Translations under genes and position numbers: made by a program | Shown here: piece by piece, positions 9,088 through 44,029 of the stretch | Numbering within the stretch: the first letter of the stretch is position 1 | How the letters are laid out: the number at the start of each line of letters is the position of its first letter | Assembly (NCBI RefSeq): GCF_000143415.4 | Contig: NW_003314261.1 | Span: 4,566,691 to 4,630,690 of the forward strand | Direction: 5' to 3' | Source: Selaginella moellendorffii | Taxonomy: Eukaryota; Plantae; Lycopodiophyta | DNA length: 64,000 nucleotides | The notes under the pieces: generated by a model | Seen by the model: only the letters and a program-made list of their open reading frames with translations | The model's database searches: none | What the model was told of the DNA's origin: nothing

Positions 9088-9358
9088 TTTTATAATTCTC
9101 AGTCTTCCAGAGTAACTATTCCTGCGAGGCCAGCGATCGACGGAACAGGGGCCGCGGAAGCGTGTTCATATTGCGAGTGAGCTCCTAGATCATGCGCTTC
9201 TTCTCTTCCCGGTTGATCGCCTCCGGCATCGCCAGAGCGTGCTCGCGGTAAGCATTCCAGTAGGTGATCTCTCTTCTCTTCTCTGAGATGGGTATTTCGT
9301 TCTAAGGCCAGTGATCCAGCGATTCCTTTGATGATGCTAAGAAGAAGAAGTAGCGGCC

Positions 9359-12300
9359 ATGTCTCTCTCCAATTTGCTGCTGGGTTTGTTTCTACTCGTC
9401 TTTCTCGCAACATCTCGGTCGCAGTGCCCCACGAATCCATCCGGGATCGCCAACGACACACAGACTCTGCTCTCTCTCGGTGACAGGCTTGGCATCAAAG
9501 CGTGGAACGAGACCGCCAATCCAAGAGCATGGCGCGGTGTGGAGTGGAGCTCGGACAACCGAGTGGAGGGCCTCAATATGTCCAGGTTAAATCTCTCGGG
9601 AGTTCTTCCTTCCATCTGGGCCGAGCTTCCATCGCTGGCTCGCTTGGACCTCTCGCAAAACAACATCTTCTCGCTGGAGGTGGCTGGTTGCAAGAACACG
9701 CAGCTCAAGCTCCTCAACTTGAGCTCCAATTCTCTGCAAGAGGTCCCGGCAAACCTCTCCAGCCTCGAGAGCTTGGAAAGCTTGGACCTCAGTGGGAACT
9801 TCTTGGGAGTGGCTGGAGTTCCAAAGTTTAGCTCCACGCTGCGATCGCTCAACCTGTCCATCAACAACTTGACTGGGAGCGTCTCCATCGGTGGTAACCT
9901 GGGACTGGAGGCACTGGAGCTCTCGCACAACGGATTCAGCGGCTCCATTCCAGAGACTTTCGGGGAGATGACGAACTTGACGCGCCTGGACATATCGTAT
10001 AACAGGTTTACCGGAGATCTACCCGATATCTGGAGCAAGAACTTGGAGCTCAGGTACTTGGATATCTCCAACAATTCGCTCCAGGGCGGTTTGCCACCGA
10101 GCTTGCGAAGGCTACGCAAGCTCTCGGTTTTAAGCGCTAGATCCAACTTTCTCTCCGGGCCACTGGAGCTGGAAGATGGCGACTTTGCGAGCATCGAGAC
10201 TTTGCACCTCTTCCAAAACTTGTTTAACGGGACGGTACCAGCGAGGGTGGGAAGCTTGACGAACTTGAGGATGCTGGTTCTCACGCAGAATCGTTTCAGT
10301 GGCGCTATACCTCCGGAGCTAGGAAACTGCTCGAACATCAGAGAGATATGGCTCAACGGCAATGACTTGACTGGAACCATCCCAGGCGAGCTCTCGAAGC
10401 TGTCGCATCTCCAGCAGCTAGTTCTCAATGGCAACGACATCGGTGGAGAGCTCCCTTCCGGACTCTCCAACTGCACGGAGCTGGTCGTTCTCTGGCTGGA
10501 GCAGAACAAGTTTTCTGGAAATCTCCCGGACAGCTTCGCGAACTTGAGCCGCCTGCTCATTCTCTCGCTCTCCGGCAATGATCTCGTCGGTTCCATCCCG
10601 GCCTCCTACGGCAAGATGAGCTCGCTGATCGGCCTCGACGTTGGATCGAACAGCCTCTCTGGAGAAGTCCCGGCCATGCTGCAAAACGTCTCGACTTTGC
10701 AGTTCCTCTTCCTCTCAAACAACAGCTTCAGCGGCTCCATCCCGGACTGGCTTCCCCGACTCAGGAACTTACGAGCCATGGACTTCTCGCTTAACAGGTT
10801 CTCAGGCGAGATACCGGCAAGCATCGGCCGACTGTTCGCCAACGTCCAGCTCTACAACATGACCAACACCACCCCGCTGGTTCACGCGCAAAGCCTCGTC
10901 TACAGTGGCTTCGCCTTCCCGACAACCATAGACTTCTCCTCCAACCAGCTGAGTGGAAGCATTCCAGCGACCATCGGCGACCTCCACAACCTCCAGGTGC
11001 TGGACTTGAGCCACAACCAGCTAACCGGTCCCATTCCCGATTCCCTGGGAAACGCGAAGAACCTCTCCAGGGTGACGCTCGCGAGCAATCGTCTCAATGG
11101 CTCCATACCATCGTCCGTGGCGGACCTCTCGTTTCTCACCGTCTTCGACGTCTCCAACAACAGCCTGGTGGGACGGATACCTTACAGCCCGCAACTCTCG
11201 TCCATGGACGTGGCTCTCTTCGCGGGAAACCATCTCTGTGGCGCGCCTGTGGCAAACTGCTCGAGCAGTGCTGCGCCGCCGGGTGGAATCCAGTCCAGAG
11301 GTGGCGAGCTAGAATCTCAAGAGGCGACGAGGAGAAAGACGCTCATACCGATCGTCATCGCCATCTTTGCGGCGGCCTTCTTCTGCGTCTTCCTGGCCAT
11401 GTACTTCGCGCTCGCTCGTCGGCGGCACAAGCTGTACTCCAACACCGACCGGGACAACGCCAGCTTCTCGCTCGCCTTCTGCGAGAAGCTCCCCGAGCAG
11501 ATCTCCGCGCGCAAGCTGGCGGCCGCCACAGACAACTTCAGCGGGGACAACGTCGTCGGGGACGGCGGCTTCGGCGTCGTGTACCGCGCAGTGCTGGAAA
11601 ACGGCCAGGTGGTGGCCGTGAAGAAGCTCTCGTCGTGCGGCCTCCAGGGGGACCGCGAGTTCCGCGCCGAGCTCCAGACGCTGGGCGAGCTCAAGCACAA
11701 GAACCTGGTGCCGCTGCTGGGCTACTGCTCCGACAACAACGATCGCCTCCTCATCTACAAGTACCTCAAGAACGGCAGCGTCGACACTTGGCTCTACTGC
11801 CGCGAGCCCGGGATGAAGCCGCTCGACTGGCCGACGAGGCTGAGGATCGCCCGCGGCGCGGCGCAGGGGATCGCGTACTTGCATCAAGGTTGCGAGCAGC
11901 GGCACGCGATCATCCACCGGGATATCAAAGTGAGCAACATACTCCTGGACGAAGAGTTTGAGGCTCACGTCGCGGACTTCGGGCTGGCGAGGCTGGTGAA
12001 CGCTGGAGAGACGCATGTAAGCACGGACGTGGCGGGAACCATCGGCTACATCCCACCGGAGTACAGCCACAAGTGCTTCGCGACGCCCAAGGGGGACGTG
12101 TACAGCTTTGGGGTGGTGTGCCTGGAGATGCTCACGGCGAAGAGGCCGACGGACCAATTCTTCCGGAAGAACACCGGGCTGGTGGCGTGGGTCTTGGGGT
12201 TGAGGAGTGGGGAGGAGAAGAGGATGGCGCTGGACGAGTGCTTGCGGGAGCGGTGTGAGCATGGCGCGGAGTTTGATCAGATGGTGGAGATGATGAGGAT

Positions 12301-12529
12301 CGCTTGCTGGTGCTGTAGAGACGCTCCATCGAAGCGTCCTAGCATGCAGGAGGTGGCGAGCTTGTTGGAGCGGCTAGAGAAGCGCGTGGTTCTTGGTGGT
12401 GGTGGTGGTGGTGGATCGCCGACGCCGCTGCTCGAGAGGGATCGAGATGGGAGGAGCAGCAGCACCAGCAGTAGCAGCAGCGCTCCAGTCGATGATCCTT
12501 GCGTGGTTGAGCTCACAACCACGGTATAG
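9359..12529 (+). CDS. Intronless LRR receptor-like kinase, PSKR/EMS1/BRI1-related (LRR-X-like)
   Basis: 1056 aa: signal peptide, about 20 plant LRRs with an island-like insert (...SLVYSGFAFPTTIDFS), TM IPIVIAIFAAAFFCVFLAMYFAL, RD kinase (GDGGFGVVY, VAVKKL, HRDIKVSNILLD, DFGLAR, GTIGYIPPEY). Confidence 0.93.
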   Translation: MSLSNLLLGLFLLVFLATSRSQCPTNPSGIANDTQTLLSLGDRLGIKAWNETANPRAWRGVEWSSDNRVEGLNMSRLNLSGVLPSIWAELPSLARLDLSQNNIFSLEVAGCKNTQLKLLNLSSNSLQEVPANLSSLESLESLDLSGNFLGVAGVPKFSSTLRSLNLSINNLTGSVSIGGNLGLEALELSHNGFSGSIPETFGEMTNLTRLDISYNRFTGDLPDIWSKNLELRYLDISNNSLQGGLPPSLRRLRKLSVLSARSNFLSGPLELEDGDFASIETLHLFQNLFNGTVPARVGSLTNLRMLVLTQNRFSGAIPPELGNCSNIREIWLNGNDLTGTIPGELSKLSHLQQLVLNGNDIGGELPSGLSNCTELVVLWLEQNKFSGNLPDSFANLSRLLILSLSGNDLVGSIPASYGKMSSLIGLDVGSNSLSGEVPAMLQNVSTLQFLFLSNNSFSGSIPDWLPRLRNLRAMDFSLNRFSGEIPASIGRLFANVQLYNMTNTTPLVHAQSLVYSGFAFPTTIDFSSNQLSGSIPATIGDLHNLQVLDLSHNQLTGPIPDSLGNAKNLSRVTLASNRLNGSIPSSVADLSFLTVFDVSNNSLVGRIPYSPQLSSMDVALFAGNHLCGAPVANCSSSAAPPGGIQSRGGELESQEATRRKTLIPIVIAIFAAAFFCVFLAMYFALARRRHKLYSNTDRDNASFSLAFCEKLPEQISARKLAAATDNFSGDNVVGDGGFGVVYRAVLENGQVVAVKKLSSCGLQGDREFRAELQTLGELKHKNLVPLLGYCSDNNDRLLIYKYLKNGSVDTWLYCREPGMKPLDWPTRLRIARGAAQGIAYLHQGCEQRHAIIHRDIKVSNILLDEEFEAHVADFGLARLVNAGETHVSTDVAGTIGYIPPEYSHKCFATPKGDVYSFGVVCLEMLTAKRPTDQFFRKNTGLVAWVLGLRSGEEKRMALDECLRERCEHGAEFDQMVEMMRIACWCCRDAPSKRPSMQEVASLLERLEKRVVLGGGGGGGSPTPLLERDRDGRSSSTSSSSSAPVDDPCVVELTTTV

Positions 12530-16070: not shown

Positions 16071-16246
16071 TACCACAAAATGCGTCTAGGATTCGAGTTT
16101 GTTTTTTTCAAGGTCAATCGGTACAGTCCACCAAGTCGAATTGTCCAAGTCCACATTCTATCCCAACACATATCGTGTAAACTCTGGCGAAAACTCTTCC
16201 ACTCTTTGATGTTCTGATCCATCGGTTTGATTAAAGAGTATCGGCC

Positions 16247-18337
16247 ATGTCTCTCGCGGATTTGCTGCTGCCTTTGTTTCTACTCGTCTTTCTCACAACA
16301 TCCCGGTCACAGTGCCCCACGAATCCATCCACAATCGTGAACGACACACAGGTTCTTCTCTCTCTCCGTGACAGGCTTGGCATCAAAGCGTGGAACGAGA
16401 CCGCCAATCCAAGAGCATGGCGCGGTGTGGAGTGGAGCTCGGACAACCGAGTGGAGGGCCTCAATATGTCCAGGTTAAATCTCTCGGGAGTTCTTCCTTC
16501 CATCTGGGCCGAGCTTCCATCGCTGGCTCGCTTGGACCTCTCGCAAAACGGCCTCTCCTCGCTGGAAGTCCCTGGTTGCAAGAACACGCAGCTCAAGCTC
16601 CTCAACTTGAGCTCCAATTCTCTGCAAGAGGTCCCGGCAAACCTCTCCAGCCTCGAGAGCTTAGAAAGCCTGGACCTCAGTGCGAATTTCTTAACAGTGC
16701 TCGGTGTTCCAAAGTTTAGCTCCACGCTGCGATCGCTCAACCTGTCCATCAACAACTTGAATGGGAGCGTTTCCATCGGTGGCAACCTGGGACTGGAGGC
16801 ACTGGAGCTCTCGCACAACGGACTCAGCGGCTCCATTCCAGAAACTTTCGGGGAGATGACGAACTTGACGCGCCTGGACATATCGTTTAACAGGTTTAGA
16901 GGAGATCTTCCAGATATTTGGAGCAAGAACTTGGAGCTCAGGTACTTGGATATCTCCAACAATTCGCTCCAGGGTGGTTTGCCACCGAGCTTGCGAAGGC
17001 TACGCAAGCTCTCGGTTTTAAGCGCTGGAAACAACTTTCTCTCCGGGCCACTGGAGCTGGAAGATGGCGACTTTGCGAGCATCGAGACTTTGCACCTCTT
17101 GCGAAACATGTTTAACGGGACGGTACCAGCGAGGGTGGGAAGCTTGACGAACTTGAGGGTGCTGGTTCTCATGTGGAATCGTTTCAGTGGCACTATACCT
17201 CCGGAGCTAGGAAACTGCTCGAACATCAGAGAGATATGGCTCAACGGCAATGACTTGACTGGAACCATCCCAGGCGAGCTCTCGAAGCTGTCGCATCTCC
17301 AGCAGCTAGTTCTCAACGGCAACGACATCGGTGGGGAGCTCCCTTCTGGACTCTCCAACTGCACGGAGCTGGTCGTTCTCTGGCTGGAGCAGAACAAGTT
17401 TTCTGGAAATCTCCCGGACAGCTTTGCGAGCTTGAGCCGCCTGCTCATTCTCTCGCTCTCCGGCAATGATCTCGTCGGTTCCATCCCGGCCTCCTACGGC
17501 AAGATGAGCTCGCTGATCGGCCTCGACGTTGGATCGAACAACCTCTCTGGAGAAGTTCCGGCCATGCTGCAAAACGTCTCGACTTTGCAGTTCCTCTTCC
17601 TCTCAGACAACAGCTTCAGCGGCTCCATCCCGGACTGGCTCCCCCGGCTCAGGAACTTACGAGCCATGGACTTCTCGCTTAACAGGTTCTCGGGCAAGAT
17701 ACCGGCAAGCATCGGCCGACTGTTCGCCAACGTCCAGCTCTACAACATGAGCACCACCACCCCGCTGGTTCACGCGCAAAGCCTCGTCTACACCGGCTTC
17801 GCCTTCCCGACAACCATAGACTTCTCCTCCAACCAGCTGAGTGGAAGCATTCCGGCGGCCATCGGCGACCTCTACAATCTCCAGGTGCTGGACCTGAGCC
17901 ACAACCGGCTAATCGGTCCCATTCCCGAGTCCCTGGGAAACGCAAGGAATCTCTCCAGGGTGGCGCTCGCGAGCAATCGTCTCAATGGCTCCATACCAAC
18001 GTCCGTGGCGGACCTCTCGTTTCTCACCGTCTTCGACGTCTCCAACAACAGCCTGGTGGGACGGATACCTGACAGCCCGCAACTCTCGTCCATGGACGCG
18101 GCTCTCTTCGCGGGAAACCAGCTCTGTGGCTTGCCACTGATCAACACCTGTTCGAGCACTGCTCCGCCGCATAGGCCTAGAAGAGACGGACAAGGTGGTA
18201 GCGAACAGGACCAAGGAGGTGTGACAACACTTGTCAGCGTCGCCATCTTCGTGGCAGCCTTCTTCTACGCGCTCTTCTGGACTTTCCTATGTACTTTGCA
18301 GCAACCCTGTATAATCTTGAGCCCCGCGCTCCGATAG
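16247..18337 (+). CDS. LRR receptor-like protein (ectodomain + TM, no kinase), recent duplicate of 9359-12529
   Basis: 696-aa intact ORF nearly identical to the RLK ectodomain; TM VSVAIFVAAFFYALFWTFL then a short tail. Confidence 0.85.
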   Translation: MSLADLLLPLFLLVFLTTSRSQCPTNPSTIVNDTQVLLSLRDRLGIKAWNETANPRAWRGVEWSSDNRVEGLNMSRLNLSGVLPSIWAELPSLARLDLSQNGLSSLEVPGCKNTQLKLLNLSSNSLQEVPANLSSLESLESLDLSANFLTVLGVPKFSSTLRSLNLSINNLNGSVSIGGNLGLEALELSHNGLSGSIPETFGEMTNLTRLDISFNRFRGDLPDIWSKNLELRYLDISNNSLQGGLPPSLRRLRKLSVLSAGNNFLSGPLELEDGDFASIETLHLLRNMFNGTVPARVGSLTNLRVLVLMWNRFSGTIPPELGNCSNIREIWLNGNDLTGTIPGELSKLSHLQQLVLNGNDIGGELPSGLSNCTELVVLWLEQNKFSGNLPDSFASLSRLLILSLSGNDLVGSIPASYGKMSSLIGLDVGSNNLSGEVPAMLQNVSTLQFLFLSDNSFSGSIPDWLPRLRNLRAMDFSLNRFSGKIPASIGRLFANVQLYNMSTTTPLVHAQSLVYTGFAFPTTIDFSSNQLSGSIPAAIGDLYNLQVLDLSHNRLIGPIPESLGNARNLSRVALASNRLNGSIPTSVADLSFLTVFDVSNNSLVGRIPDSPQLSSMDAALFAGNQLCGLPLINTCSSTAPPHRPRRDGQGGSEQDQGGVTTLVSVAIFVAAFFYALFWTFLCTLQQPCIILSPALR

Positions 18338-29399: not shown

Positions 29400-29873
29400 C
29401 TAATGTAGTGAACTTTTCCCTAGTGCTGAATGAGATATGTGAGTGGTACAAGGAAATACACACTGAAATAGTTTAAAACATTGTTGTAGGATTTTGGGAT
29501 ACAAATTCCAGTACAACATGTTGGCTATAGCATTGACTAGGGAAGTGAGATTTCACTCATACGCTAAGCACATTGAGTAGAGGTTCCACTTCATTTCAGA
29601 TCAAATCAACAATAGAACCATCAACTTGGAATTTTACCCAACCACCTCAATGGTCACTGATATCCTATTGAAGCCCCTATCTTGAGTGAAATAGGAAGTC
29701 TTCCTTAAATCTCTCTATTTGATTGACAGTGCAAGCCTTGAGGAGTGTGGAGACAAGTGACAATGTTAACAAACAAGTTAAGTTCACCAAATGCCAAGCA
29801 TCACCCATACCATTACATACATAATCATACAAGTCCACAGAGCATTCCACACACAAAAATCTAGACATCTACA
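29400..29873 (+). mobile_element. Ty1/copia 3' remnant (RNase H piece, PPT, short LTR about 29745-29873)
   Basis: Inverted homologue of 29880-30370: RFHFI..QINNRTINL-like text, gccttgaggag PPT, then TGTGGAGACAAG...CATCTACA. Confidence 0.75.
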
Positions 29874-31439
29874 ATCATTTGTAGATATGTGTTTTTGTGT
29901 GTGGAATGCTCTGTCAACTTCATTGCTTTGGTATGGTTATGTACATAATAGTATGGGTGTGACACTTGGCGGTTGGTGTCTTGGATGAATGACTTGTCTT
30001 CTTTGCTGATGTGGAGACTTGTCATCACTTGTCTCCACACTCCTCCTCAAGGCTTACATCATCAGTCAAATGGAGTGATTTGAGGAAGAGTTCATGCTTC
30101 ACTCAAGGCAAGGACTTTGTTAGGATATCAGCAACCATTGAGCTGGTTGAACAGAATTGCAGGTTGATTGTTCTATTGTTGACTTGATCCCAGATGAAAT
30201 GAAACCTCCAGTGAAATCTCATATCCCGAGTCAACGCTATTGCCAACATATTGTCGCAGTAGAGTTTGATTGCTGGAATTTGAATCCCAAGGTCCTGCAG
30301 CAATGTCTTAAGCCAGATGGCCTCTTTCGCTACTGCTATAGCTGTGATGTATTCAGATTTGCATGAGGACATTGCAGTGATCTATTGCCTCGTGGAACAC
30401 CAACTAACCATGTTATGGTTATACATGAAGACATACCCTGAGGTGGATTTTCTGTCATCTAGATCTCCTACCCAGTCTGCATTTGTGAATCCCACCAGGT
30501 TGTTGTCTCCATCTCCTCTTGCATATTTCAGTGTGAATTTCCTTATGCCACTCACATACCTCATGATCCGCTTCACAGCGGCCCAATGTGAGGGTGATAG
30601 ATTGTCCAAGAACTTTGAGACTGCTCCCACACTGAATGCAAGGTTAGGCTTAGTTGAGACCATCAAGTAGATGAGGGCTCCTGACTATTGAATGGTACAG
30701 TCATGGGCTTGAGTGGTGCCGGAGGGGCCACCCAGGGAAGTGCTCAAGAGCAGCTCCCACTCCCGAAAGGGAAACCGACTGCGGTGCTCCCAACTCATGT
30801 GGAGTGGTGCCCCACGTGAGTACCTTGTGGCTCATTGGTCCTCGCCCTTCCTAAGGGCTTGGGCCTTCCCTTCGGGATGGAAGTGAGGGGGTAGAGGTAC
30901 CCATACCGGGCCGTTAGGCCATGGTGTTTCGCCCCGACGTCCCGAAGCAAGTGCTGCACCCAAGGCTTGGGATTTAGAGGGTCCCATGATCAAGTCTTGT
31001 GGTACCAAGGGGTGTTAGGAATCTGGAGGCTTGGTGTGCTTGGCTGCTTGTGCCTGCGGGGAGTGTAGCCGAACCTTAAGTCCAGTCTAACCCGGGGAGG
31101 GGGATTGGGAGAGATTTGGGAATCCATAGATGGATGGCTAACACTCCATTGCTCGTGTAGTGAGTAGTTGAAACCAAGTAGGACCAAGTAGGAGCTGGTA
31201 CCATAGGCGAGAAGCTGTGAGACACAAAATCCCTAAGCCCCAAAGTGGAGCCGGAAGGGCGCCACATGGTAGTGGCCGAAGCGAGAGCCAAACGAGCGTA
31301 ACACGTTTGGACCAAAAGCTCCGACTTGAAAAGTCAAGAGCGGGAGTGGAACTCCCAACGAAGTGCTCAAGGAACGAGCACAAAGCGAGCAAAAGGCGAG
31401 GCTCCAAAAAGGGACCCAAAAGGACCAACACATGACACG

Positions 31440-31957
31440 TGGGAGTGTCCGAGATGGACTCGAGTTGGAGTCCGAAGTGGAGTCCGAGATGGACTTGAGT
31501 TGGAGTCCGAAGTGGAGTCCGAGATGGAGTCCGAGATGGAGTCCGAGATGGACCCGAGGTGGAGTCCGAGATGGAGTCCGAGATGGAGTCCGAGATGGAG
31601 TCCGAGGTGGACCCAAGATGGACCCGAAATGGAGTCCGAGATGGAGTCCGAGATGGACCCGAGATGGAGTCCGAGATGGAGTCCGAGATGGACCCGAGAT
31701 GGACCCGAGGTGGAGTCCGAGATGGAGTCCGAGATGGAGTCCGAGATGGACCCGAGGTGGAGTCCGAGATGGAGTCCGAGATGGAGTCCGAAGTCAAGAC
31801 CGAGACCGGGACCGAGACCGGGACCGAGACCGAGACCGAGACCGAGATCGGGACCGAGACCGAGACCGAGGCCGAGGCCAAGACCGAGCCCGAGCCCGAG
31901 TCCGAGCCCGAATCCGAGTCCGAGTCCGAGTCCGAGTCCGAGTCCGAGTCCGAGTCC
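31440..31957. repeat. Tandem array of 12-bp (GGAGTCCGAGAT) and 6-bp (CCGAGA/CCGAGT) units in element B 5' LTR
   Basis: Directly visible; produces low-complexity ORFs (MESE/SPRW/GVRD). Confidence 0.95.
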
Positions 31958-33043
31958 AGAATATGCTAAAGAGACATACTAGGGGTGAACATCCTCCGGA
32001 CTTGGCAAAGAAGAGTCTTTGCTATGGAACCGAAAGGATACCTCAAAAATGGAGGTAGCGATCCGATGTTGCTGGGTGCAACAATCAAGGATAGGAGCAA
32101 AGGACTAGTGGCCAAAGTTTGGGCCATGGAATTTAATGGAAGGGATCCAAATGGCAAAGTTAGCCAAGGAACACTAATGTGTTCGATGCTAACAGCTTGT
32201 GGGAAAGGAAGCGGACTTTCAAGGATGGATTCCTAAGTGCTCCAATTTGGCGAAGTAAAGGCTCCAAGTGAGGGAGCGGTAAGGTAGCCAAATGATAGGG
32301 CCATGGACAGCCCTAGCACAAAGTATGATAAATGGAACTTAGTGCCCAAGGTGGCACGAAATAGAAGAGAGGATGATGGTGCCCTCAAGTAATGAACTTC
32401 CTAGGATAGGGAAGTGGAGTTGCACAATCTGTGCAATGCAAGGTGTTGGAGACACTTAGGAAATTGACTCCCAAAAAGTCAAAAGAGTAAAAGTTCCAAG
32501 GTGCAAACATTCAATAGATGGAAATTGAGATTACTCGAGAAGGAGTAGTGGGATTGACTTAGAGAAGGGTCTCTAAGAGGTTTAGCGAGAACTAAACCAA
32601 TAAAAGGAGAGAACCATTACATGTGGTCCAATCAGTCTCTAAGTTGGAGAGACTACGCTTCTTAAAGGATGGACAAGGCATGGTGAGCCTTTGGTGTCAA
32701 ACCATAGACAAAGATTGGCTAGGTGCCAAGGATGGAAATGGTAACACGTGTGGGTGTTACTTTATGAAATGGTTTACCGTTCGATGAGGACATCGAACTT
32801 CGTCTATGGGTGGTGGAGTTGTGAGACACAAAATCCCTAGGCCCCAAAGTGGAGCCGGAAGGGCGCCACATGGTAGTGGCCGAAGCGAGAGCCAAACGAG
32901 CGTAACACGTTTGGACCAAAAGCTCCGACTTGAAAAGTCAAGAGCGGGAGTGGAACTCCCAACAAAGTGCTCGAGGAACGAGCACAAAGCGAGCAAAAGG
33001 CGAGGCTCCAAAAAGGGACCCAAAAGGACCAACACATGACACG

Positions 33044-33545
33044 TGGGAGTGTCCGAGATGGACTCGAGTTGGAGTCCGAAGTGGAGTCCGAGATGGACTT
33101 GAGTTGGAGTCCGAAGTGGAGTCCGAGATGGAGTCCGAGATGGAGTCCGAGATGGACCCGAGGTGGAGTCCGAGATGGAGTCCGAGATGGAGTCCGAGGT
33201 GGACCCAAGATGGACCCGAAATGGAGTCCGAGATGGAGTCCGAGATGGACCCGAGATGGAGTCCGAGATGGAGTCCGAGATGGACCCGAGATGGACCCGA
33301 GGTGGAGTCCGAGATGGAGTCCGAGATGGACCCGATGTGGAGTCCGAGATGGAGTCCAAGATGGAGTCCGAAGTCGAGACCGAGACTGGGACCGAGACCG
33401 GGACCGAGACCGAGACCGAGACCGAGATCGGGACCGAGACCGAGACCGAGGCCGAGGCCGAGACCGAGCCTGAGCCCGAGTCCGAGCCCGAATCCGAGTC
33501 CGAGTCCGAGTCCGAGTCCGAGTCCGAGTCCGAGTCCGAGTCCGG
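33044..33545. repeat. Same 12-bp/6-bp tandem array in element B 3' LTR
   Basis: Copy of 31440-31957 with small unit-number differences. Confidence 0.95.
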
Positions 33546-36500
33546 AGCCTGAGAGGGTGAAAGCCCAAAGCGTTCGTCTCCCAGACCCTGGGGGTTTTGG
33601 TGAGCTCCAAAAGTATAGTAGGGGGGAGGACTGCAGTGGAGCCAGTTTGGCCAGGAAAGGCCAGTTTGGCCCAGGAAGGCCAGACCCAGTGTTGGGTGAT
33701 GAGCTGCCCACTGGGAAGTCCAAGACTAGAGTGAACATAGACCGACAAGCGGGGTAGCTTGGTGAAGTGTTCAAGAGCCGGCTGTAGTTCCCCCGGGAGA
33801 TCGACTGGCCGATGCTCCCAGTCCAAGTGTGGGTGGCACTACCTACTTGGATACCTGGTGTGGCTCAACGGAACCCGCTCTAAGCCCATGGCTAGAGCAC
33901 CCAAGGGCAGAAGGCGAGGAGAGTACCCAGGTGGCTCGCTTAAGGCCACGGTGTTCCGAAATGTCGTCCCAAAGGCCCAGACTGTGGAAAGGAAGAGGAG
34001 CAGTCCTCTGGAGTAGTGACCAAGGACACAGTCGTGTGGTGAGGAAGTCCTAGAGGACCGTGGGACTTAGGGGTCGGGCCTGTGGGCCTCGATCCAGTGG
34101 CAGTGTTGGCAAACACGGCCAGGGGCAGAAAGGGACTTGGTAGGAACTGACAAAGGGACTTTGGGGAAGGTACTTCCCCAGGTCTGTGGGCATCCTAAGG
34201 ATGCTAAGGAGTGGATCTAGGATGACCACTCGTGGACACATGGCCCAGTCGTGGAGAGACGAGGTGGTGATGCAAGTGGTGTTGAACCACTAGTACAGCA
34301 AAGGTGAATGGGCATGGCCTTAGCGTAACGGGCCGAGACGTCAGTGGTACCTTTGGGTGTCGGTCTCAAGACCGGACACGTGGAGCACTGGGACCAGGTG
34401 CAAGTGTGGAGTGGCATGGATGCCATTCTTGGGGCTAGTAAGTCCCAAGTCCTGAATTGGAATGATGGAGGTTGTGAATGAGACTCCTCCAAGTGGTCGG
34501 AGGTGTGGTTAAGTGACTAAAGTAGAATGGAAAATTTAGTCGCTTACAGAAGCTTGGCGAGGGAACTTAGCACAAGCCAAGGCAGAGTTGGTCGGATAGA
34601 CGAGGTAAGCTGGCAAATTGGAAAGGAAAAATTTGTGGCATACAATTTGGTATCGGAGCCTTTTCCTCAGTTCTAGCAAAGGAAAGAGGCGGATTGCTGG
34701 GAGATGGCAAGGGCAGGGCATAAGCGAACCTAGGTGGAGACGGAACCTCCGCCAGAGTTAGAGCCTCCGGTTGAACAAGAGGCTATGGATGAGGAATCCT
34801 TGCATAAGGAGGACTCTAGTGAGGAAACTTCCAAACAAGAGTCCAGTGGTGAGGTTCAGTTATCCAAGGCTCGATTGGACGTTCTAGAAGGACAATTGGC
34901 GCAGACCAATGCCCTACTGGAGACTCTCGTACGCAAGCTAAAGCGTGATGAGAAGCAGAAGAAAAAGAGAAAGACTGCGGATGCTGGCAGCGCAGAAGGT
35001 GCGGACCCTTCGGCAGGGACTGAGGCAAAACCAAACAAGGTCGAACAGACCGAAGTGGAATCAGTCCCTCAGGTAGTTCCCAAGTACAAACCAAAGCCCC
35101 CACCGGTCTTCAAGGGAGTGAACGACTATAAGGTGGTGGAGGATTGGTTTTACGATATGGAGGACTACTTCCGAGCATTGTGATTACCGAGCTCGGAGAA
35201 GGTCCCATGTGCAAAACCATACTTGGCAGATAATGCCAAGTCTTGGTGGAGAACGACAGAGGCCAACGAAGGACCGGTGGCCACTTGGGAAATGATGAAG
35301 GCAAGGATCCGCGCAACTTACGTTCCTCCGAATGCTACTTTGCATCTAAGGGACGAGCTGAGTAGGCTGAAGCAGACCGGAACCATTAAGGAGTATGTGA
35401 ATGGGTTTATGGCAAAGAGGATACTTGTCACAGACATGGGGGATATGGATGCGTTCCATGCCTTCATATAAGGTTTGCAAACCTGGGCTCACGGTGAGGT
35501 GATGCGGTGGAACCCGACCAACTACAAGGAAGCGTTGGATGCGGCCATCAAGGTGCATTTCAACGATAACCTGCAAAAGGGGAACACGACGGGGTCGGGA
35601 TCCACGTTTAGCAAAGGGGCCAAACCAAGGGGAACGTTTAGCAGAGGGAAATTCAAGAAGAGTTTCTCTAAGAATGAGTCCTCGGGGTTCCGGAAAGGCA
35701 AATCCGGTGGCCAACGAGCGAGTACGTGGGGGAGTCAAGCAAAAAGAGACAAACCCACGGATAAGAAGGTCAAGTCTTATAGCAGCGTGGGAAACAACGT
35801 ATGCTACAACTGCGGTGAAGCGGGACACTTTTCAAGGGAATGTCCCTACCCGAAGAAGGCCAGAGCCAATATGGCCATCAAGTCGGGTGAAGTCCAAACT
35901 GAGGTATGTGATCCAGTCCCTAACTCAAAGTTACTCATTACACGAGCAACTTTGGTAGAAAGTCATTCGCGACATCTACTAGCCCTTCGGGGGAAGCTCG
36001 GAGGTAGCTTTGTTAAGATCCTTATTGACACGGGTGCTTTGGATAATTTTGTGGCTGCAGACATAGTCCGGCAAGCCGGACTAACGGTGCAGTAGCTAGG
36101 CGAACCAAGGACTATAGAGTTTGTTCAAGGTAGCCAAAGCACCGATAAGGTACTTCGACAAGCGAGAGTCGAAGTAGGGACATGGAAAGTGGACATGGAT
36201 TTCACTGTGTTAGACATGGCGGGATTTGACATGATCTTCGGAATGGACTGGTTCAATCAGTTTGTGGTAGCCCTGCATGGACAAGGTAGAAACCTTGTGG
36301 TACTGGCGAATGCCCAAGGAAGAAGATCCAGGGTGGAGGCCCAGGATCTCAAGGTAGGGCAAAGCAAGGCCAAAGAATCTTGCTTAAACCTGGTGTCCAC
36401 GAGAGGACAACTCACTAAAGGAACTAAGGCAGCATTTTTGTGCTTACTCACGGTGAAGAGTGATAACAAGACAGGAACGGAAGAAGTACCTTGCTTGATC

Positions 36501-38576
36501 CAACGGGTGTTGGACCAATTCTAGGATACCATGCCGGAGGAGTTACCGGCGGGGTTGCCCCCCGCACGACCAATAGAACATAAGATTGAGCTAGTCGAGG
36601 GTGCTGAGGCGATGGTTCGTCCCCCTATCGTTTGAATGAGAAAGAACTCGAGGAGCTCAAGCGCCAACTAGAGGAGTTGGTGGACAAAGGGTATGTTAGG
36701 TTGAGCAAGTCGCTGTATGGGGCGCCGATGTTATTTGTGAAAAAGAAAGATGGATCTATACGCATGTGCATAGACTACCGATTGCTCAACAAGTATACAA
36801 AGAAGAACAAGTACCCTTTGCCCAGGATTGAGGACCTGTTCAATAAGTTGGGAAAGGCAAAATACTTCTCGAGGATTGACCTAAGGTCAGGATACTACTA
36901 GATCAGGGTAGCCAAGGAAGATGTCGAGAAGACAACCTGTCGAACGAGGTATGGGAGCTTTGAGTTTCTGGTGATGCCCTTCGGGCTATGCAATGCACCG
37001 GCAACGTTTTTGGCGCTAATGAACCACATCTTTGTACTCTATCTGGATCACTTCGTGGTTGTCTATATCGACGACATCCTAATCTATAGCGAGACGCTAG
37101 AGGAGCATGCCGAACACTTGGCGAAGGTGTTTGAGAAACTAAGGGAACACAAACTGTATGCTAAAGAGAGCAAATGTGACTTTGCTCAACAAGAGGTAAA
37201 GTTTCTCGAGCATGTGGTGGGCCAGGACGGGCTCAAGGTGGACCCGGAGAAGGTCCAAGCGATCCAGGAATGGGAGCGACCATTGAATGTACATGAGTTG
37301 AGGGCATTCCTGGGGCTATGCAACTACTATCGAAAGTTTATCAGACACTATTCGAGAGTAGCCCTGCCCTTAACAGACCAAACAGGAAAAGGGAAGATGG
37401 TATGGACAGCGGAATGCGAGGCGGCATTCGTCCACCTCAAAGGGAAGTTGAGGAAGGCTCCCGTATTGGCATTACTAGACTTTGGTAAGGACTTTGAGGT
37501 AGAAACAGATGCTTCGGACTTTGCGTTAGGTGCAGTTTTGAAGCAAGACAACCATCCGGTAGCGTTCTTCTCGAAGAAGCTGGACAAGGCTCAACGGAAG
37601 TGGCTTGCCCACGAGAAGGAATTGTTTGCGGTGGTCAAGGCACTCAAGGAGTGGCGACACTACCTTGGGAGAAACTTCAAGGTTTACACGGACAATGTGG
37701 CAACGAAACACTTCTTGTCACAGCCCGACCTGCGAGGGAAACAAGGTCGGTGGGCCAATGCCTTGGCCAAGTTTGATTGCGAGATTCTGTACAAGCCTGG
37801 GAAGAGCAACATTGTGGCGGATGCGCTAAGTCGAAAAGCGAGCTTGAGGTTGGCAATATCAAGCGCAACAGCAACCTTCTGGGACGATGTGCAGACAGCA
37901 TATGAGAACGATGGTCTAGCACAAGAAGTGTTGCTGAGGAATCTAGAGGCACGAGAAGCTCACCAGAGAGGTGAGCTGCCAACGGAAGAGAAAACGGGCT
38001 ATGTGGAACGCAATGGACTCATCTATTACAAGCAAACGAGGGTGTATGTTCCAGAAGGGGAACTAAGGAAGGTAGCCTTAGAAGAGTGTCATGACAGACC
38101 TCTTGCGGGACACGGCGGAGTGCCCAAGACGATGGGCTTACTCAAGAGGAAGTACCATTGGCCAGATATGGCTAAGGACGTCCAAAACTATGTAAAGACA
38201 TATCTAACATGTCAGCAGGTAAAAGCCGTGACTAAGGCTAGTGGGGGCTTGTTGCAAAGCATCCCAATTCCAGATCGTCCGTGGAAATGTCTTACGATGG
38301 ACTTCATCACGGGACTCCCCCCAAGTGAGGGGTTTGATGCGATATTCGTGGTGGTGGACCGATTTTTGAAAATGGCACATTTTATACCCACCACAACGGA
38401 GGTGGATGCGGAAGGTGTGGCAAAGCTGTTCTTTGAACAAGTGGTTCGAGTGCGGGGCAGACTGGAAGAGATCATCTCAGATCGAGATAAAATCTTCACC
38501 AGCAGGTTCTAGAGGACTCTTCTGGAACAGTATCGCACCAAGTTGAAATTCAGCACAGCCTATCACCCACAGACAG

Positions 38577-38622
38577 GTATGGGGTATTAGGTCAAGTTGT
38601 TAGCACTAAAACTTCTTGACAG
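38577..38622 (+). other. 46-bp GT-AG intron inside gypsy integrase core
   Basis: Removal restores YHPQT-D-GQTERVN; GTATGG donor, CTAAA branch-like site, TTGACAG acceptor. Confidence 0.8.
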
Positions 38623-39040
38623 ATGGACAAACGGAAAGGGTGAATAGGCAGCTGGAGGATTATTTGCGATGCTATGTCTCGGGAGACCAAACCGATTGGG
38701 TAAGTCATTTGGGACTTGCGGAAATGTGTTATAACAACTCACCACATTCGAGTATCGGGGTGAGTCCATGGGAAGTCATCAATGGGCGAGCTATTGAAGG
38801 TCCTGTGGAACTCGGTGTGGCCGAGTATCATAGAGAGCTACCCGCAGTGGAGGCATTCACGGCGGAAAGACTCAGCATTTGGAATCTAGTGAGGGATTCC
38901 TTGGAATGGGCTCAACAAAGGCAAACCAAATATGTGAACCAGAAGCGTCGGGATGTAGAATTCCAAGCTGGGGAGAAGGTGTGGCTGAACACCAAGAACC
39001 TTAGGCTACCAAGTGGGATCAGCCGAAAGTTGACCCAAAG

Positions 39041-39092
39041 GTAAAGATGCATGTATTCCTGTAAACGAATTGATCTTGAGTTCCTTAAGCAG
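39041..39092 (+). other. 52-bp GT-AG intron inside gypsy integrase C-terminal (GPY/F) module
   Basis: Removal restores RKLTQ-R-FAGPYEI; AG|GTAAAG donor, GCAG|G acceptor. Confidence 0.8.
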
Positions 39093-39959
39093 GTTCGCGG
39101 GGCCTTACGAGATTGAGGCACGAATCGGTAAAGTGGCTTACCATCTCCGACTTCCTCGAGAGATGGGGAAGATGCACCCAGTGTTCCACGTGAACTTACT
39201 CAAGCCGTACTTTGAGGATCCGCTTCACAAGGACCAAGTAAGACCTCTACCTGAGGTAATCCAAGGGGAAGAGGAATACGAAGTCGAGGCCATCCTCAAT
39301 GCGCGCAAGAGCAAGTGACAAGGACGCGAGGTGAGAGAGTTCCATGTGAAGTGGAAAGGATTTCCACACTGCGAAGCAACATGGGAACCGGAGGAGAACC
39401 TAGCGAACGCGCGAGATTTAGTGGAGGAATTTCTACAAGGCAGAACTCTATGTACTTATGCAAAGTTCAATTAAAAATATCAATTTGCAAAGTTGAGCAA
39501 GTGGCATATGTTGAGACCCGAAGGCATGCCGAAGGTAAGCTAATTAGCATGGGTTGGATAGGTCGACCAGGCGTAGGGCACTACGCCCGACTCCCCGCGG
39601 GGATGTCGAATCTGTAGACGTATTCTATGGAGGTTGGGTTCGAGTCCCAACCCCCTAGTAAAGCAAGGCTAGGTTCAAGTCCCGACCCCATACTAGGGCG
39701 TGGTGAGGTGAGGAGTATAGGGACACCTATACTCCGTTGTCATGGGCTCTTGGTCGGGGAGGCTAACTTAGGCACACCGCTAAGTGGGGGGATGCCCCCG
39801 AAGACATGGTCAACAAGTTGTAGGATAAAAAAGAGACGTTCGATATGGGCATCGAACTTCTTCTATGGGTGGTGGAGTTGTAACAAACCGACTCCCCAAG
39901 ATGTCGTAGGCTAAAGGATCCCCGAAAGCATGACCGAAATGACAAAGAGTTCATCGGAT

Positions 39960-40240
39960 GGGACCGAGTCGAAGATCGAGTCCAAGACCGACTCTGAGAC
40001 CGAGTTCAAGATAGAGTCCGGGATCGAGTCCGAGACTGAATCGGAGACCGAGTTCGAGACCGAGTTCAAGACCGAGTTCGAGACAGAGTCCGAGATCCAA
40101 ATCGGGTCCGAGACCAAGTCCAAGGTCGAGTCCGAAGTCGAGTTTGAGATGGGGTCCAAGATCGAGTCCGAAATCGAGTCCGAGATCGAGTCCGAAGTCG
40201 GGTCCGAGATCAAGTCCGAGATCGATTCTGAGACTAAGTC
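39960..40240. repeat. Diverged 6/12-bp CCGAGA/CCGAGT-type array in element A 3' LTR
   Basis: gagtccgagatc-like units; translates as an ETESE/SEIE-rich ORF. Confidence 0.85.
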
Positions 40241-43200
40241 CACATACTAATACAGCTCAAAGGGTGAAAGCCCAAAGCGTGTGTCTCCCGGAGGGGGGGG
40301 GGGGGGGGGGGGCTGTAGGGGGTTCCAAAAGTATAGTAGGGATAGTGAGGTCCAGGAACCAGTCTTGAAGGAACTCTCCAGTGGGGCTTCCAAACCGACT
40401 CGAGGTTGAGACTGGGGCCGAGGGGCCTTGGGTGGGGGTGAGCATGGGCTTGAGTGGTGTCGGAGGGGCCACCCAGGGAAGTGCTCAAGAGCAGCTCCCA
40501 CTCCCGAAAGGGAAACTGACTACAATGCTCCCGGCTCATGTGGAGTGGTGCCCCACTTGAGTACTTTGTGGCTCATTGGTCCTCGCCCTTCCTAGGGGCT
40601 TGGGCCTTCCCTTCGGGATGGAAGTGGGGGGGTAGAGGTACCCATACCGGGCCGTTAGGCCACAATGTTTCGCCCCAACGTCCCGAAGCAAGTGCTGCAC
40701 CCAAGGCTTGGGATTTAGAGGGTCCCATGATCAAGTCTTGTGGTACCAAGGGGTGTTAGGAATCTGGAGGCTTGGTGTGCTTGGCTGCTTGTGCCTGCGG
40801 GGAGTGTAGCCGAACCTTAAGTCCAGTCTAACCCGGGGAGGGGGATTGGGAGAGATTTGGGAATCCATAGATGGATGGCTAACACTCCATTGCTCGTACA
40901 GTGAGTAGTTGAAACCAAGTAGGACCAAGTAGGAGCTGGTACCATAGGCGAGAAGCTTGGCGAGGGAATTTAGCACAAGCCAAGGCAGAGTTGGTCGGAT
41001 AGACGAGGTAAGCTGGCAAATTGGAAAGGAAAAATTTGTGGCTTACAGTGTGCTGGAGAAGGCAACGAATAGTCTTTAGTAGAGTGCAATTAAGGTGCTT
41101 TACCACGGTTCTGTTGGGGAGTATGGGCTATTGTGTACTGGTGAATGATGCCAGCCTCAGCTAGAAAGTTGAGAAACTCTCTATTCATGTACTCTCCACC
41201 ACCATCCGTGTGTAACACATGAATCTTTCAGCTAGTAGACATCTCTGCCCAACTCTTTAAAAGCTTAAAGTGGTTGAACACTTCACTCTTGGTGTGGAGA
41301 AGGCTCACCACAGTGTATCTAGAATGGTCATTGATAAAAGACACAAAGTACCTCTTGCGGCTGAGTGTTTCCATGGGCAAGTAGCACACATCACTATGAA
41401 CCAGATCCAATAAGCCTGTAGCTTAGTCCTCCATGGTTCTTGATGGAAAAGAAAGGCAAACTTGCTTCCCAAGATGGCAAGTTTCACACATGCCCAGATG
41501 GCCAACTAGGAGCGTGATGCCTTTAGCATGTTGGTTACGAGCTAAGGCGTACAAATCTCATTGACATGCCCTAGACGAGCATGCCAGAGCTCAATGGTGT
41601 CTTATGCTTGGGAAGCAAGCATTTGAGCTGGAAAAACCAATTCTACATTTAAACAGTAGAGTGTTTCATACCTCATACCACTGGCTATAGGAGTACCATC
41701 ACAAATATAGATGGTGCACCCTTTTGGGAAGAAGGTGGTAATAAAGCCTTGATCTAAGGTTGCCCCTATAAAAGAATTGTTTACCTTGCTTCAAGTACAA
41801 AGTGCACGTGATGAACCTCCTTAAAAGTTCCATTTGGTACCTTGATCACCACCATGCCACGACTTTCCATCTGGAGTGGTCGCTTGTTGTTGACATAAAT
41901 CTATTGTGGAGCTTGAAGAGCCTTGTAAGTGTGAAATGTAGACCTTAAGGGAGTCATGTGAAAGGAAGCACCACTATCCAGCCATAGAACTTCAAGAGTA
42001 GACATTGGTGATGGGTAAAGAGCCATCATCAACAACGAGTTGCTCTGGATAAGCATGTGTTGGGTGGTAGCCTTCTTTGCACAACACTCACGCTTGACAT
42101 GCCCCATCTTTCCACAATAGTTGCAAGGACCCTTTTTCTTCTTAGAGAAGTTCGATCAAGAGCTAGGAGTTGTAGTAGAAGAGATACAAGGCCCACAACT
42201 AGTGCCTCCTTTCCTCTGCTCCCCACTCGATTGTTTCTTACCAAGAAACAAGGCCTACTCACGAGTAGCCTGAGGGGATCCTTGATGGCCAACTTAACAC
42301 TCAACAATCTTGCACTCTTCCTCAAATAGATCAAAGTAGAGCTCCTCCATGGTTTTGCCTAGGACAAAAAAGAGCATGGAGGATGATTGTTGCAACTCTG
42401 GGGATACAGAGTAGAGTAGGAAGGCTTTTGCATAGTCATTGGAAACTACAACACCTACTTCATTCAATTGCTGCATTAAGCCCTTGAGCTTCCTGATGTA
42501 TGTTGCCATTGTTTCACCAGGCTGTATGCGTAGGGAGAAAAATTTCTAGGTCAAAACCAATTTAGCATTAGTGGCTTTGGCTGCAAAGACTTGGGAAAGA
42601 GAGTCCCAATTGGCCTTGGCAGATTTTTCTAGATCAAGGAGATGAATAAATTCATCTCCAAGACCCAATCCAATCACGGAAAGTGCTTTGCAATCCTTGG
42701 AGTCCCAAGTAGCCTGCAAAGCGGCTTCTGTATCTTGAGGTCTTACTTCAATTCCCTCCACCAAATCCCAACAATCTTTTGCCATTAAAATTAATTGGAC
42801 TTTGGTTTTCCAGGTCATGAAGTTCTCGCCCATGAACTTCTAGAGTAGCTTCTCCCATCTTGCATCCCAGTTGCCAACTGGGGTGGCCATGGTGCTCGCT
42901 AAGGTGGTTCTAGATGTAGTGCAAGGTGGAGTACTGGTAGCCGTTAGTTTCTAGAAGAAAGGATAAAATAGTGGAATAAGCTAGAAGCAAGGAGGGGGAG
43001 GAGGCGGTGGGAATCGTTGGAAGGGACACCCACATGCCGTACACACAGGGCAGAGGCACGGATGGACATCACATTGTGCTCGCTTGCATTCTTGAATCCA
43101 TTGTTCCACCCTAGCAAGGACTGCAAGAGCCCTAGCACAGTCCTACTAATTGCATTGCTGTGTTTGCTAGTGTTTTGCCATCAGGATCGAAACAAACCCA

Positions 43201-43351: not shown

Positions 43352-43900
43352 TCAAGTTTCTGTAATGGAGCTGCTGAGTCTGTTGTGTGATAGGTCCAGT
43401 GCCTTCAGTCCCAGGTTACCACCGATGGAAACGCTCGCAGTACAGTTGTTGATGGACAGGTTGAGCATTGAGCTAAACTTTGGAACTCCAGCCACTGTTA
43501 AGAAGTTCACAATGAGGTCCAGGCTTTCCAAACTCTCGAGGCTGGAGAGATTTCCTGGGACCTCTCGCAGAGAATTGGAGCTCAAGTTGAGGAGGTTGAG
43601 CTGCGAGAGGTCCAGGTGAGCCAGTGATGGAAGCTCGTCCCAGATGGCAGGAAGAACTCCCAAGAGATTAAACCTGGACAGAGCAAGGCCCTCCACTCGG
43701 TTGTCCGAGTCCCACTCCACACCCCGCCATGCTCTTGGATTGGCGGTCTCGTTCCACACTTTGATCCCAAGCTTGTCACAGAGAGAGAGCAGAGCCTGTG
43801 TGTCGTTGGCGATCCCAGATGGATTCATGGGACACTGTGACCGGGATCTTGTGAGAAAGACGAGTAGAAACAAAGGCAGGAGCAAATCCGCAAGAGACAT
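43352..43900 (-). pseudogene. Third, truncated copy of the LRR receptor N-terminus, cut by the copia LTR
   Basis: MSLADLLLPLFLLVFLT...NLSSNSLREVP...; upstream 43900-44070 is an inverted match to 16060-16250; ends at the LTR edge. Confidence 0.88.
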
Positions 43901-44029
43901 GGCCGATACTCTTTAATCAAACCGATGGATCAGAACATCAAAGAGTGGTGAGGGTTTTCTTTTCGCCAGAGTTTACGGGATAGAATGTGGAGTTGGACAG
44001 TTTGACTAGTTGGGATCGTCGAAAAAACA

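Follow-up and report, generated by a model that had tools for sequence, protein, structure and literature searches.

The 64,000-nucleotide window of Selaginella moellendorffii DNA analysed here (contig NW_003314261.1, positions 4,566,691 to 4,630,690) carries a Ty3/gypsy chromovirus, a long terminal repeat (LTR) retrotransposon with the order Gag-CCHC, protease, reverse transcriptase (RT), RNase H, integrase and chromodomain. Its integrase is interrupted by two short segments, 38577-38622 (46 nt) and 39041-39092 (52 nt). Both begin with GT, end in AG and contain a branch site close to the 3' splice site; they are removed exactly in RNA-type data and retained in the DNA data examined, as expected for introns of the major (U2) spliceosomal type. 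We consider it quite probable that a doubly spliced mRNA supplies the only catalytically complete integrase with its chromodomain, and that the unspliced RNA is the packaged and reverse-transcribed genome.

Loss of an intron after one cycle was the founding proof of retrotransposition. The family described here apparently gained two introns within its integrase and kept them through amplification, and so must sort near-identical RNAs into translation and packaging. The 98 nt removed by splicing constitute a natural marker that makes the choice of genome RNA by an LTR element directly testable, and the two lineage-specific gains can be compared with an intron-less sister family.

Two introns within the integrase frame

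The original prediction, made from the letters of the window, had proposed two insertions in the integrase, and their coordinates and GT..AG ends are borne out. Removal of both yields one frame that extends from the integrase zinc finger through YHPQT^DGQTERVN and KLTQ^RFAGPY (^, junction) to the chromodomain, as predicted; in this copy, the joined frame still contains stops at 38510 (before intron 1) and 39316 (after the SH3-like domain). When retained, intron 1 reads T-G-M-G-Y-stop (stop at 38588-38590), again in agreement with the prediction, and intron 2 gives an immediate in-frame stop (39042-39044). The branch-like words that had been noted are present 13-19 nt from the 3' end of both introns, near 38606-38610 in intron 1 and at 39070 in intron 2. 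The two introns, which are unlike each other, are richer in AT and in T than the exons (GC 0.39 and 0.37 vs 0.49-0.51). A random insertion of the same length would read GT..AG under any equivalent cut in about 1.2% (intron 1) and 1.0% (intron 2) of cases, and both would do so in about 1 in 8,000; the same product results when the cut is slid by 5 nt (intron 1) or 4 nt (intron 2). The claim that the insertions have the size of host introns needs qualification: four introns picked by eye in a single gene of the window measure 86, 56, 159 and 66 nt, so that lengths of 46 and 52 nt are among the shortest to be expected of the host. Introns 1 and 2 are also short against the transcriptome means given in the accessible text of PMC5310277 for S. 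moellendorffii, which are 285 bp over all introns and 106 bp over those that are retained.

Intron 1 separates the catalytic Glu from the first two Asp of the D,D35E triad. The distance of 35 residues from the second Asp (38480) to the Glu (38634) exists in the spliced frame only, and this spacing, together with alignment to the E of Ty3 and foamy-virus integrase (PDB), supports the predicted assignment of the E of QTER, which we take to be the catalytic Glu of the DDE triad, as the third residue. Exon 2 matches Ty3 Gag-Pol 1268-1389 in PDB 7q5b (E 3.7e-6). Intron 2 cuts the SH3-like domain, because exon 3 begins at position 24 of 64 in the PF24626 profile (positions 24-63 matched), so that a Tf2-1-like SH3 domain is split. 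Both introns have to be excised before the chromodomain at the C-terminus of the integrase (PF00385) shares a frame with the core. Judged from the sequence, the unspliced RNA would encode Gag, protease, RT, RNase H and an integrase without its third catalytic residue, and an RNA from which only intron 1 has been removed would encode an integrase core without a complete SH3-like domain or chromodomain.

Twenty-four sequencing runs, all of one organism, were indexed and seven were aligned: one of the three of DNA type (X1, DNA by guess), one of the twelve of unknown kind (X4), and five of the nine of RNA type or RNA, among them X15, X17 and X18 (RNA by guess) and X22 (RNA-seq on record). X1 and X4 carry both introns, and the published consensus of the family, SM1-Galahad, has the same split into three open reading frames (ORFs); the introns are thus a family trait, as the prediction had supposed, and not private to this copy. 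Intron-less junctions were found in none of the 7,123 X1 contigs on 38490-39180 and in none of the 22 X4 contigs (full joint table). Joints at single-copy depth are detectable in X1, because its joint table shows other deletions at depth 109-134 and one at 2.4. The depth of X1 over intron 2 is 0.76-0.87 million, vs about 1.1 million in the flanks; it drops within intron 1, the region where this copy diverges most from the family, and loose ends there continue through intron sequence. One X4 contig spans intron 2, and two pass from exon 1 through intron 1. The canonical CTAAC-type branch site (38606-38610) accounts for 97% of X1 depth at 38610, the stop of intron 1 remains a stop across X1, and the sole indel listed lies inside intron 1, in X17. 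Splice sites and branch site are kept family-wide while the intron interiors vary.

Removal of the introns is seen in the RNA-type runs. A single 2,500-nt contig of X15 (study P2) aligns in three pieces, omitting exactly 46 and 52 nt, and differs from this copy at 57 positions in 1,118 nt. X18 (study P4) shows the joints 38571>38618 (46 nt) and 39038>39091 (52 nt), with GT..AG, on two contigs whose short sides measure 80 and 90 nt. A 150-nt read of X22 (study P6), which lies under the listing threshold and was reconstructed arithmetically from minus-strand depth bins, consists of 38531-38571 and 38618-38726 and skips intron 1; another X22 read extends 25 nt into intron 2. The unspliced form is represented by X17 (study P3), which retains intron 1 and enters intron 2. 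Spliced sequence thus occurs at the expected junctions, for both introns in X15 and X18 and for intron 1 in X22 (one read), and both RNA forms occur in RNA-type data at a low level; five reads aligned in X22 and none in X24, each of 9.2 million. Frameshifting or read-through in place of splicing was rejected in view of the exact skipping of both segments in RNA contigs. The insertions are not private, GT/AG is kept across copies and spliced RNA exists, contrary on all three counts to what the prediction had named as evidence against itself. Its description of the copy as a relic is correct for this copy, which is dead by its stops, but not for the family, which yields both RNA forms.

The spliced frame downstream of intron 1 is under selection, clear in its direction, with p values that are optimistic. 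We classed 52 single-letter differences from 40 of 173 and 40 of 60 listed rows, after dropping duplicates, seven intron positions and two in-frame-stop positions and skipping one junction codon; the following counts hold among the rows listed. In exons 2 and 3, 15 of the 20 variants below 90% of X1 depth are synonymous vs 34% expected. Of the 15 variants at 3-90% of X1 depth, 13 are synonymous (34% expected, p 4e-5), and the same 15 give two and one synonymous changes in the other two frames; three of them lie in exon 3. Among rare variants (<10%) five of nine are synonymous, and among differences private to this copy seven of 13. If all copies carry the introns, these variants postdate intron gain, so that sequence 3' of intron 1 would have been needed as protein since the gain.

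Probable identity with SM1-Galahad and probable gain of the introns

The family is very likely SM1-Galahad of S. moellendorffii, matched by its published description (ORFs, LTR and primer-binding site, PBS) and not by consensus sequence. According to the accessible text of the original description (Novikov 2012, PMC3350952), which also provides the placement of the chromovirus family in the Galadriel clade, SM1-Galahad is a consensus of many copies, present in hundreds that are about 95% alike, none of which was found intact in 2012. A 3885-bp ORF ending in the integrase core precedes two short ORFs of 316 and 309 bp, the second of which encodes a group I chromodomain; the element has LTRs of >1 kb with a poly-G tract of 11-25 bp, a 13-bp Met PBS and a polypurine tract (PPT). 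Here the first ORF has 3884 nt, one base having been lost at the frameshift, and the other two have 318 and 309 nt, so that the middle one is off by 2; the LTR of 1,169 bp, its 20 G and the PBS at 34648 agree with this description. The sister family SM2-Galahad has a single ORF of 1,577 aa and is intact, with hundreds of copies in the same genome (PMC3350952, same text); the three exons total 1,557 codons. The published consensus therefore constitutes independent evidence that the breaks are family-wide. In PMC3350952, "intron" and "splic" occur 0 times in the main text and "intron" 0 times in the supplement, which never mentions Galahad. The segments were published as separate ORFs; the introns, their splicing and the mechanism are new here, and the three-ORF reading of SM1-Galahad is corrected. 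Pipelines that class families of this kind as broken or as lacking a chromodomain may have overlooked introns.

Related proteins run uninterrupted through both intron sites. Among 140 of them, 109 extend across site 1 with nothing but the Asp separating the exon matches, none shows the read-through signature of intron 1 at its end, and 60 have the start of exon 3 joined to the upstream motif. In a HMMER search with 150 matches, the HPxT motif lies directly upstream in 132 of the 145 reaching site 1, and 101 of the 122 reaching site 2 continue into GP. Some of these relatives are eukaryotic gene models that may hide introns, and none is close to this family: the protein search gave no close relative, with best identities of 57% (integrase N-terminal part) and 50% (near-full-length matches to exon 2). 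Because the relatives are uninterrupted and the sister family is intron-less, gain is favoured over loss, and the simplest reading would be that both introns were gained in this lineage. A pattern scan of metagenome contigs, using one His codon only and aimed at gypsy elements of any kind with an intron at site 1, gave two matches, both in unrelated genes by translation; the same kind of scan on viral contigs gave 12 matches, of which none was confirmed.

Two of the 150 matches, P0307 and P0314, begin right at site 1 and were not used as evidence. P0307 (JGI/IMG, on a 2,139-nt contig) comprises the C-terminal half of an integrase, an SH3-like domain, a chromodomain and then a SET domain (PF00856, 23.7 bits, cut-off 22.4). 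Its start, two residues ahead of DGQTER, is where a gene caller would place it downstream of an intron like intron 1.

Three further features of the introns were considered. The same five letters close exon 1 (38572-38576) and intron 1 (38618-38622), a length equal to that of the clade's target duplications; as a target duplication this repeat is weak, since the splice consensus already predicts three of its five letters. Origin by local duplication was rejected, as matches within the window score 21-28 vs 19-28 for shuffles and are not clearly above them. RNA structure as a retention device was likewise set aside: the 101 nt around intron 1 reach a z-score of -3.2, yet 10 of 94 windows along the element reach <= -3.08. 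The fold at 38590-38620 and 38558-38649 could dampen splicing, with a z-score ordinary for the element.

Two RNAs and the readings of their roles

A single-ORF element yields Gag and Pol one to one unless something intervenes. We postulate that the spliced mRNA would be translated into full Gag-Pol with integrase and chromodomain, and that the unspliced RNA would serve as the genome while also coding for Gag, protease, RT, RNase H and a non-functional stub of integrase. Incomplete splicing could then supply Gag and RT in excess of integrase, in a one-ORF element without a frameshift. An RNA that keeps intron 1 but lacks intron 2 is a likely target of nonsense-mediated decay, and its decay would leave three stable forms. 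An intron of an LTR element is lost within one cycle if spliced RNA is copied (accessible text of PMC12786077). As intron-less DNA did not turn up in the data, spliced RNA probably does not enter reverse transcription, perhaps owing to separate RNA pools as in barley BARE1.

Parts of this logic are already known from other systems, as far as the accessible texts of the cited sources describe them. Ogre elements of the Tat lineage of Ty3/gypsy in pea and Medicago keep an intron in their genomic copies and remove it from a subset of transcripts, permitting translation of the whole polyprotein (PMC6317226, PMC12786077, PMC3735527). The element described here works in the same manner, with a genomic intron removed from some transcripts, but is not an Ogre: it carries a chromodomain and Ogre is not a chromovirus, and its two introns of about 50 nt lie in the integrase, so that splicing is needed for the integrase-chromodomain alone, RT and RNase H being encoded by unspliced RNA. 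In foamy viruses, the genome is the unspliced RNA and Pol is made from a spliced mRNA, whose suboptimal splice site determines the level (PMC7828637). By the reading proposed here, an essential enzyme would likewise come from spliced mRNA and the genome from unspliced RNA; foamy-virus Pol, however, is a separate protein from a subgenomic RNA without gag, whereas here the spliced RNA is near full length and would encode a Gag-Pol fusion. Sorting would be harder than in foamy virus, because spliced and genome RNA differ by 98 nt.

In the Ty1/copia elements EVD (PMC5580714) and BARE1 (PMC3735527), retained introns tune the ratio of Gag to enzyme, and in BARE1 capped, spliced RNA is translated and uncapped, unspliced RNA is packaged (PMC3735527). 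These systems are opposite in sign, as splicing gives a Gag-only message and the unspliced RNA codes full Pol. The EVD study, in its accessible text, reports no conserved splicing in Arabidopsis Ty3/gypsy elements (PMC5580714). Penelope-like elements also retain spliceosomal introns after retrotransposition, and one spikemoss family is drawn with an inferred intron (PMC8557442); unlike the present family, they have no LTRs, particles or DDE integrase, and their introns lie mostly in the 5' untranslated region (PMC8557442). A 2025 review, in the part accessible, lists functional introns in LTR elements of plants for Ogre and EVD only (PMC12786077). No report of introns inside a retrotransposon integrase was found, with 0 matches to exact integrase-intron phrases, in a search that was thin on subscription journals, Repbase reports and the Ogre primary papers; the accessible parts of PMC2864245, PMC5718144 and PMC9940879 hold nothing on this point. 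The splicing-dependent logic is thus known from Ogre and foamy virus, and integrase introns in a family described in 2012 are new.

Several points weigh against our two-RNA reading. Selective packaging and integrase production are steps that we infer. X15, X17 and X18 are RNA by guess, which leaves one read as the on-record RNA evidence, and the unspliced X17 contig could be carried-over DNA. On the DNA side, X1 is guessed to be DNA and X4 is of unknown kind, and the intron state was read from runs that pool the copies of the family. Contigs of repeat families are short and lose rare variants, so that intron-less copies could be missed, and there is one deep DNA sample. Finally, the variant rows favour sites seen in RNA contigs and the sites are linked, which makes the p values optimistic.

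The prediction had placed transposition under host control of splicing. Such control is possible; no less probable than a host gate is a device that serves the element by keeping integrase scarcer than Gag and RT. An elaboration that we regard as doubtful is a three-state switch, in which unspliced RNA provides the genome and RT particles devoid of integrase, excision of intron 1 alone yields an integrase core that lacks the chromodomain, and excision of both introns yields a chromatin-targeted integrase. Packaging would be strictly closed to the spliced RNA, 98 nt shorter, and whether and where integration occurs would depend on splicing controlled by the host or by stress.

Strict sorting would be unnecessary if spliced RNA were also reverse-transcribed and the intron-less copies were rare, accession-specific or missed, with some of the "spliced" contigs being their transcripts or DNA and the family a mix and not a two-pool system. 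The guessed RNA status of X15 and X18 leaves room for this, as does the fact that the DNA runs aligned are not from the same individuals and that contigs show presence, not absence. We nevertheless hold it to be very unlikely, given that neither junction occurs in the X1 and X4 contigs although deletions at single-copy depth are visible there, that X1 depth over intron 2 is near that of the flanks, and that a consensus drawn from many copies had the interrupted form (PMC3350952, accessible text).

A second alternative makes the introns incidental: an integrase-dead family would owe its mobility to an intron-less relative, such as SM2-Galahad, that supplies the integrase, and its spliced RNA would be idle. 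BARE2 is a precedent for such parasitism, and expression of the family looks very low. The intact single-ORF SM2-Galahad would be a suitable donor, with its hundreds of copies in the same genome in which no intact SM1-Galahad was found in 2012 (PMC3350952, accessible text). Against it, the frame is restored exactly at both cuts, and the splice and branch sites are kept family-wide while the interiors vary. The variants in exons 2 and 3 that are common to the copies, synonymous in 13 of 15 cases among the rows listed, postdate the gain if all copies carry introns. We judge this explanation very unlikely.

That the introns entered one copy which then multiplied without an RNA step, by segmental duplication or carriage in another repeat, so that no RNA sorting is needed, is barely tenable: this copy has lost its 5' end, but hundreds of copies about 95% identical, with LTR, PBS and PPT, are described (PMC3350952, accessible text), synonymous changes predominate among copies, and the LTR divergence of 3.1% (19/611) looks below the distance to the X15 contig (57/1,118 nt), as expected if reverse transcription reset the LTRs.

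The element in the window and its surroundings

The features of the chromovirus are collected in Table 1. Profile matches give the domain order from Gag and protease through RT and RNase H to integrase, the protease motif having been picked by eye; exon 1 matches PF00098, PF00078, PF17917, PF17919 and PF17921, and PF00665 under its cut-off. TG..CA LTRs, PBS and PPT are all present. This copy is dead, with eight in-frame stops and one frameshift. In exon 1, stops lie at 34731, 35181, 35469, 36093, 36522, 36899 and 38510 and the frameshift near 36630-36645; the stop of exon 3 at 39316 lies between the SH3-like domain and the chromodomain.

Table 1. Coordinates of the chromovirus within the window
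Feature	Position	Strand	Remarks
5' LTR remnant, upstream piece	30702..31215	+	96.7% identical to 40443-40957 of the 3' LTR
5' LTR remnant, last piece, CA end	34549..34644	+	97.9% identical to 40951-41047
Primer-binding site, 13 nt, presumably initiator-Met tRNA type	34648..34660	+	motif at 34648
Exon 1: Gag, CCHC knuckle, protease, RT, RNase H, integrase HHCC domain, first two catalytic Asp (38300, 38480)	34704..38576	+	
Intron 1, 46 nt, phase 1, GT..AG	38577..38622	+	skipped exactly in X15, X18 and one raw X22 read; kept in X1, X4, X17
Exon 2: catalytic Glu (38634-38636), remaining integrase core, first part of SH3-like (GPY/F) domain; 0 stops	38623..39040	+	
Intron 2, 52 nt, phase 2, GT..AG at AG/GT site	39041..39092	+	skipped exactly in X15, X18; spanned by X4 contig, covered in X1
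Exon 3: second part of SH3-like domain and group I chromodomain	39093..39474	+	PF24626 E 3e-15; PF00385 E 1e-12
Polypurine tract	39867..39878	+	
3' LTR, 1,169 bp, TG..CA, 12-nt tandem array, run of 20 G at 40293	39879..41047	+	

The 5' LTR is truncated at 30702, with its first ~560 bp gone, and differs from the 3' LTR at 19 of 611 positions (3.1%). Its two pieces flank a nested LTR element (31216-34548), whose 5-bp target duplication lies at 31211-31215 and 34549-34553. The nested element consists of a truncated LTR (31216 to about 31957), an internal part of ~860 bp that terminates in the same PPT, and a full LTR of 1.7 kb, which is ~68% alike to the chromovirus LTR in the repeat region; no pol was seen in it, and it is probably a relative that is non-autonomous or has undergone deletion. 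The LTRs of both elements contain long arrays of 12-nt and 6-nt units (31447-31957, 33051-33545 and 39929-40241), which are possible seeds of satellite DNA.

Adjoining the truncation point of the 5' LTR, two decayed, oppositely oriented fragments with long inverted repeats, copia-like by eye, occupy 29400-30700. Elsewhere in the window, duplicates of an LRR receptor-kinase gene, one long (9341-12529) and one shorter (16235-18337), are accompanied by an inverted third piece at about 43354-43948 on the minus strand, and interleave with duplicated PPR-like genes, all named by eye.

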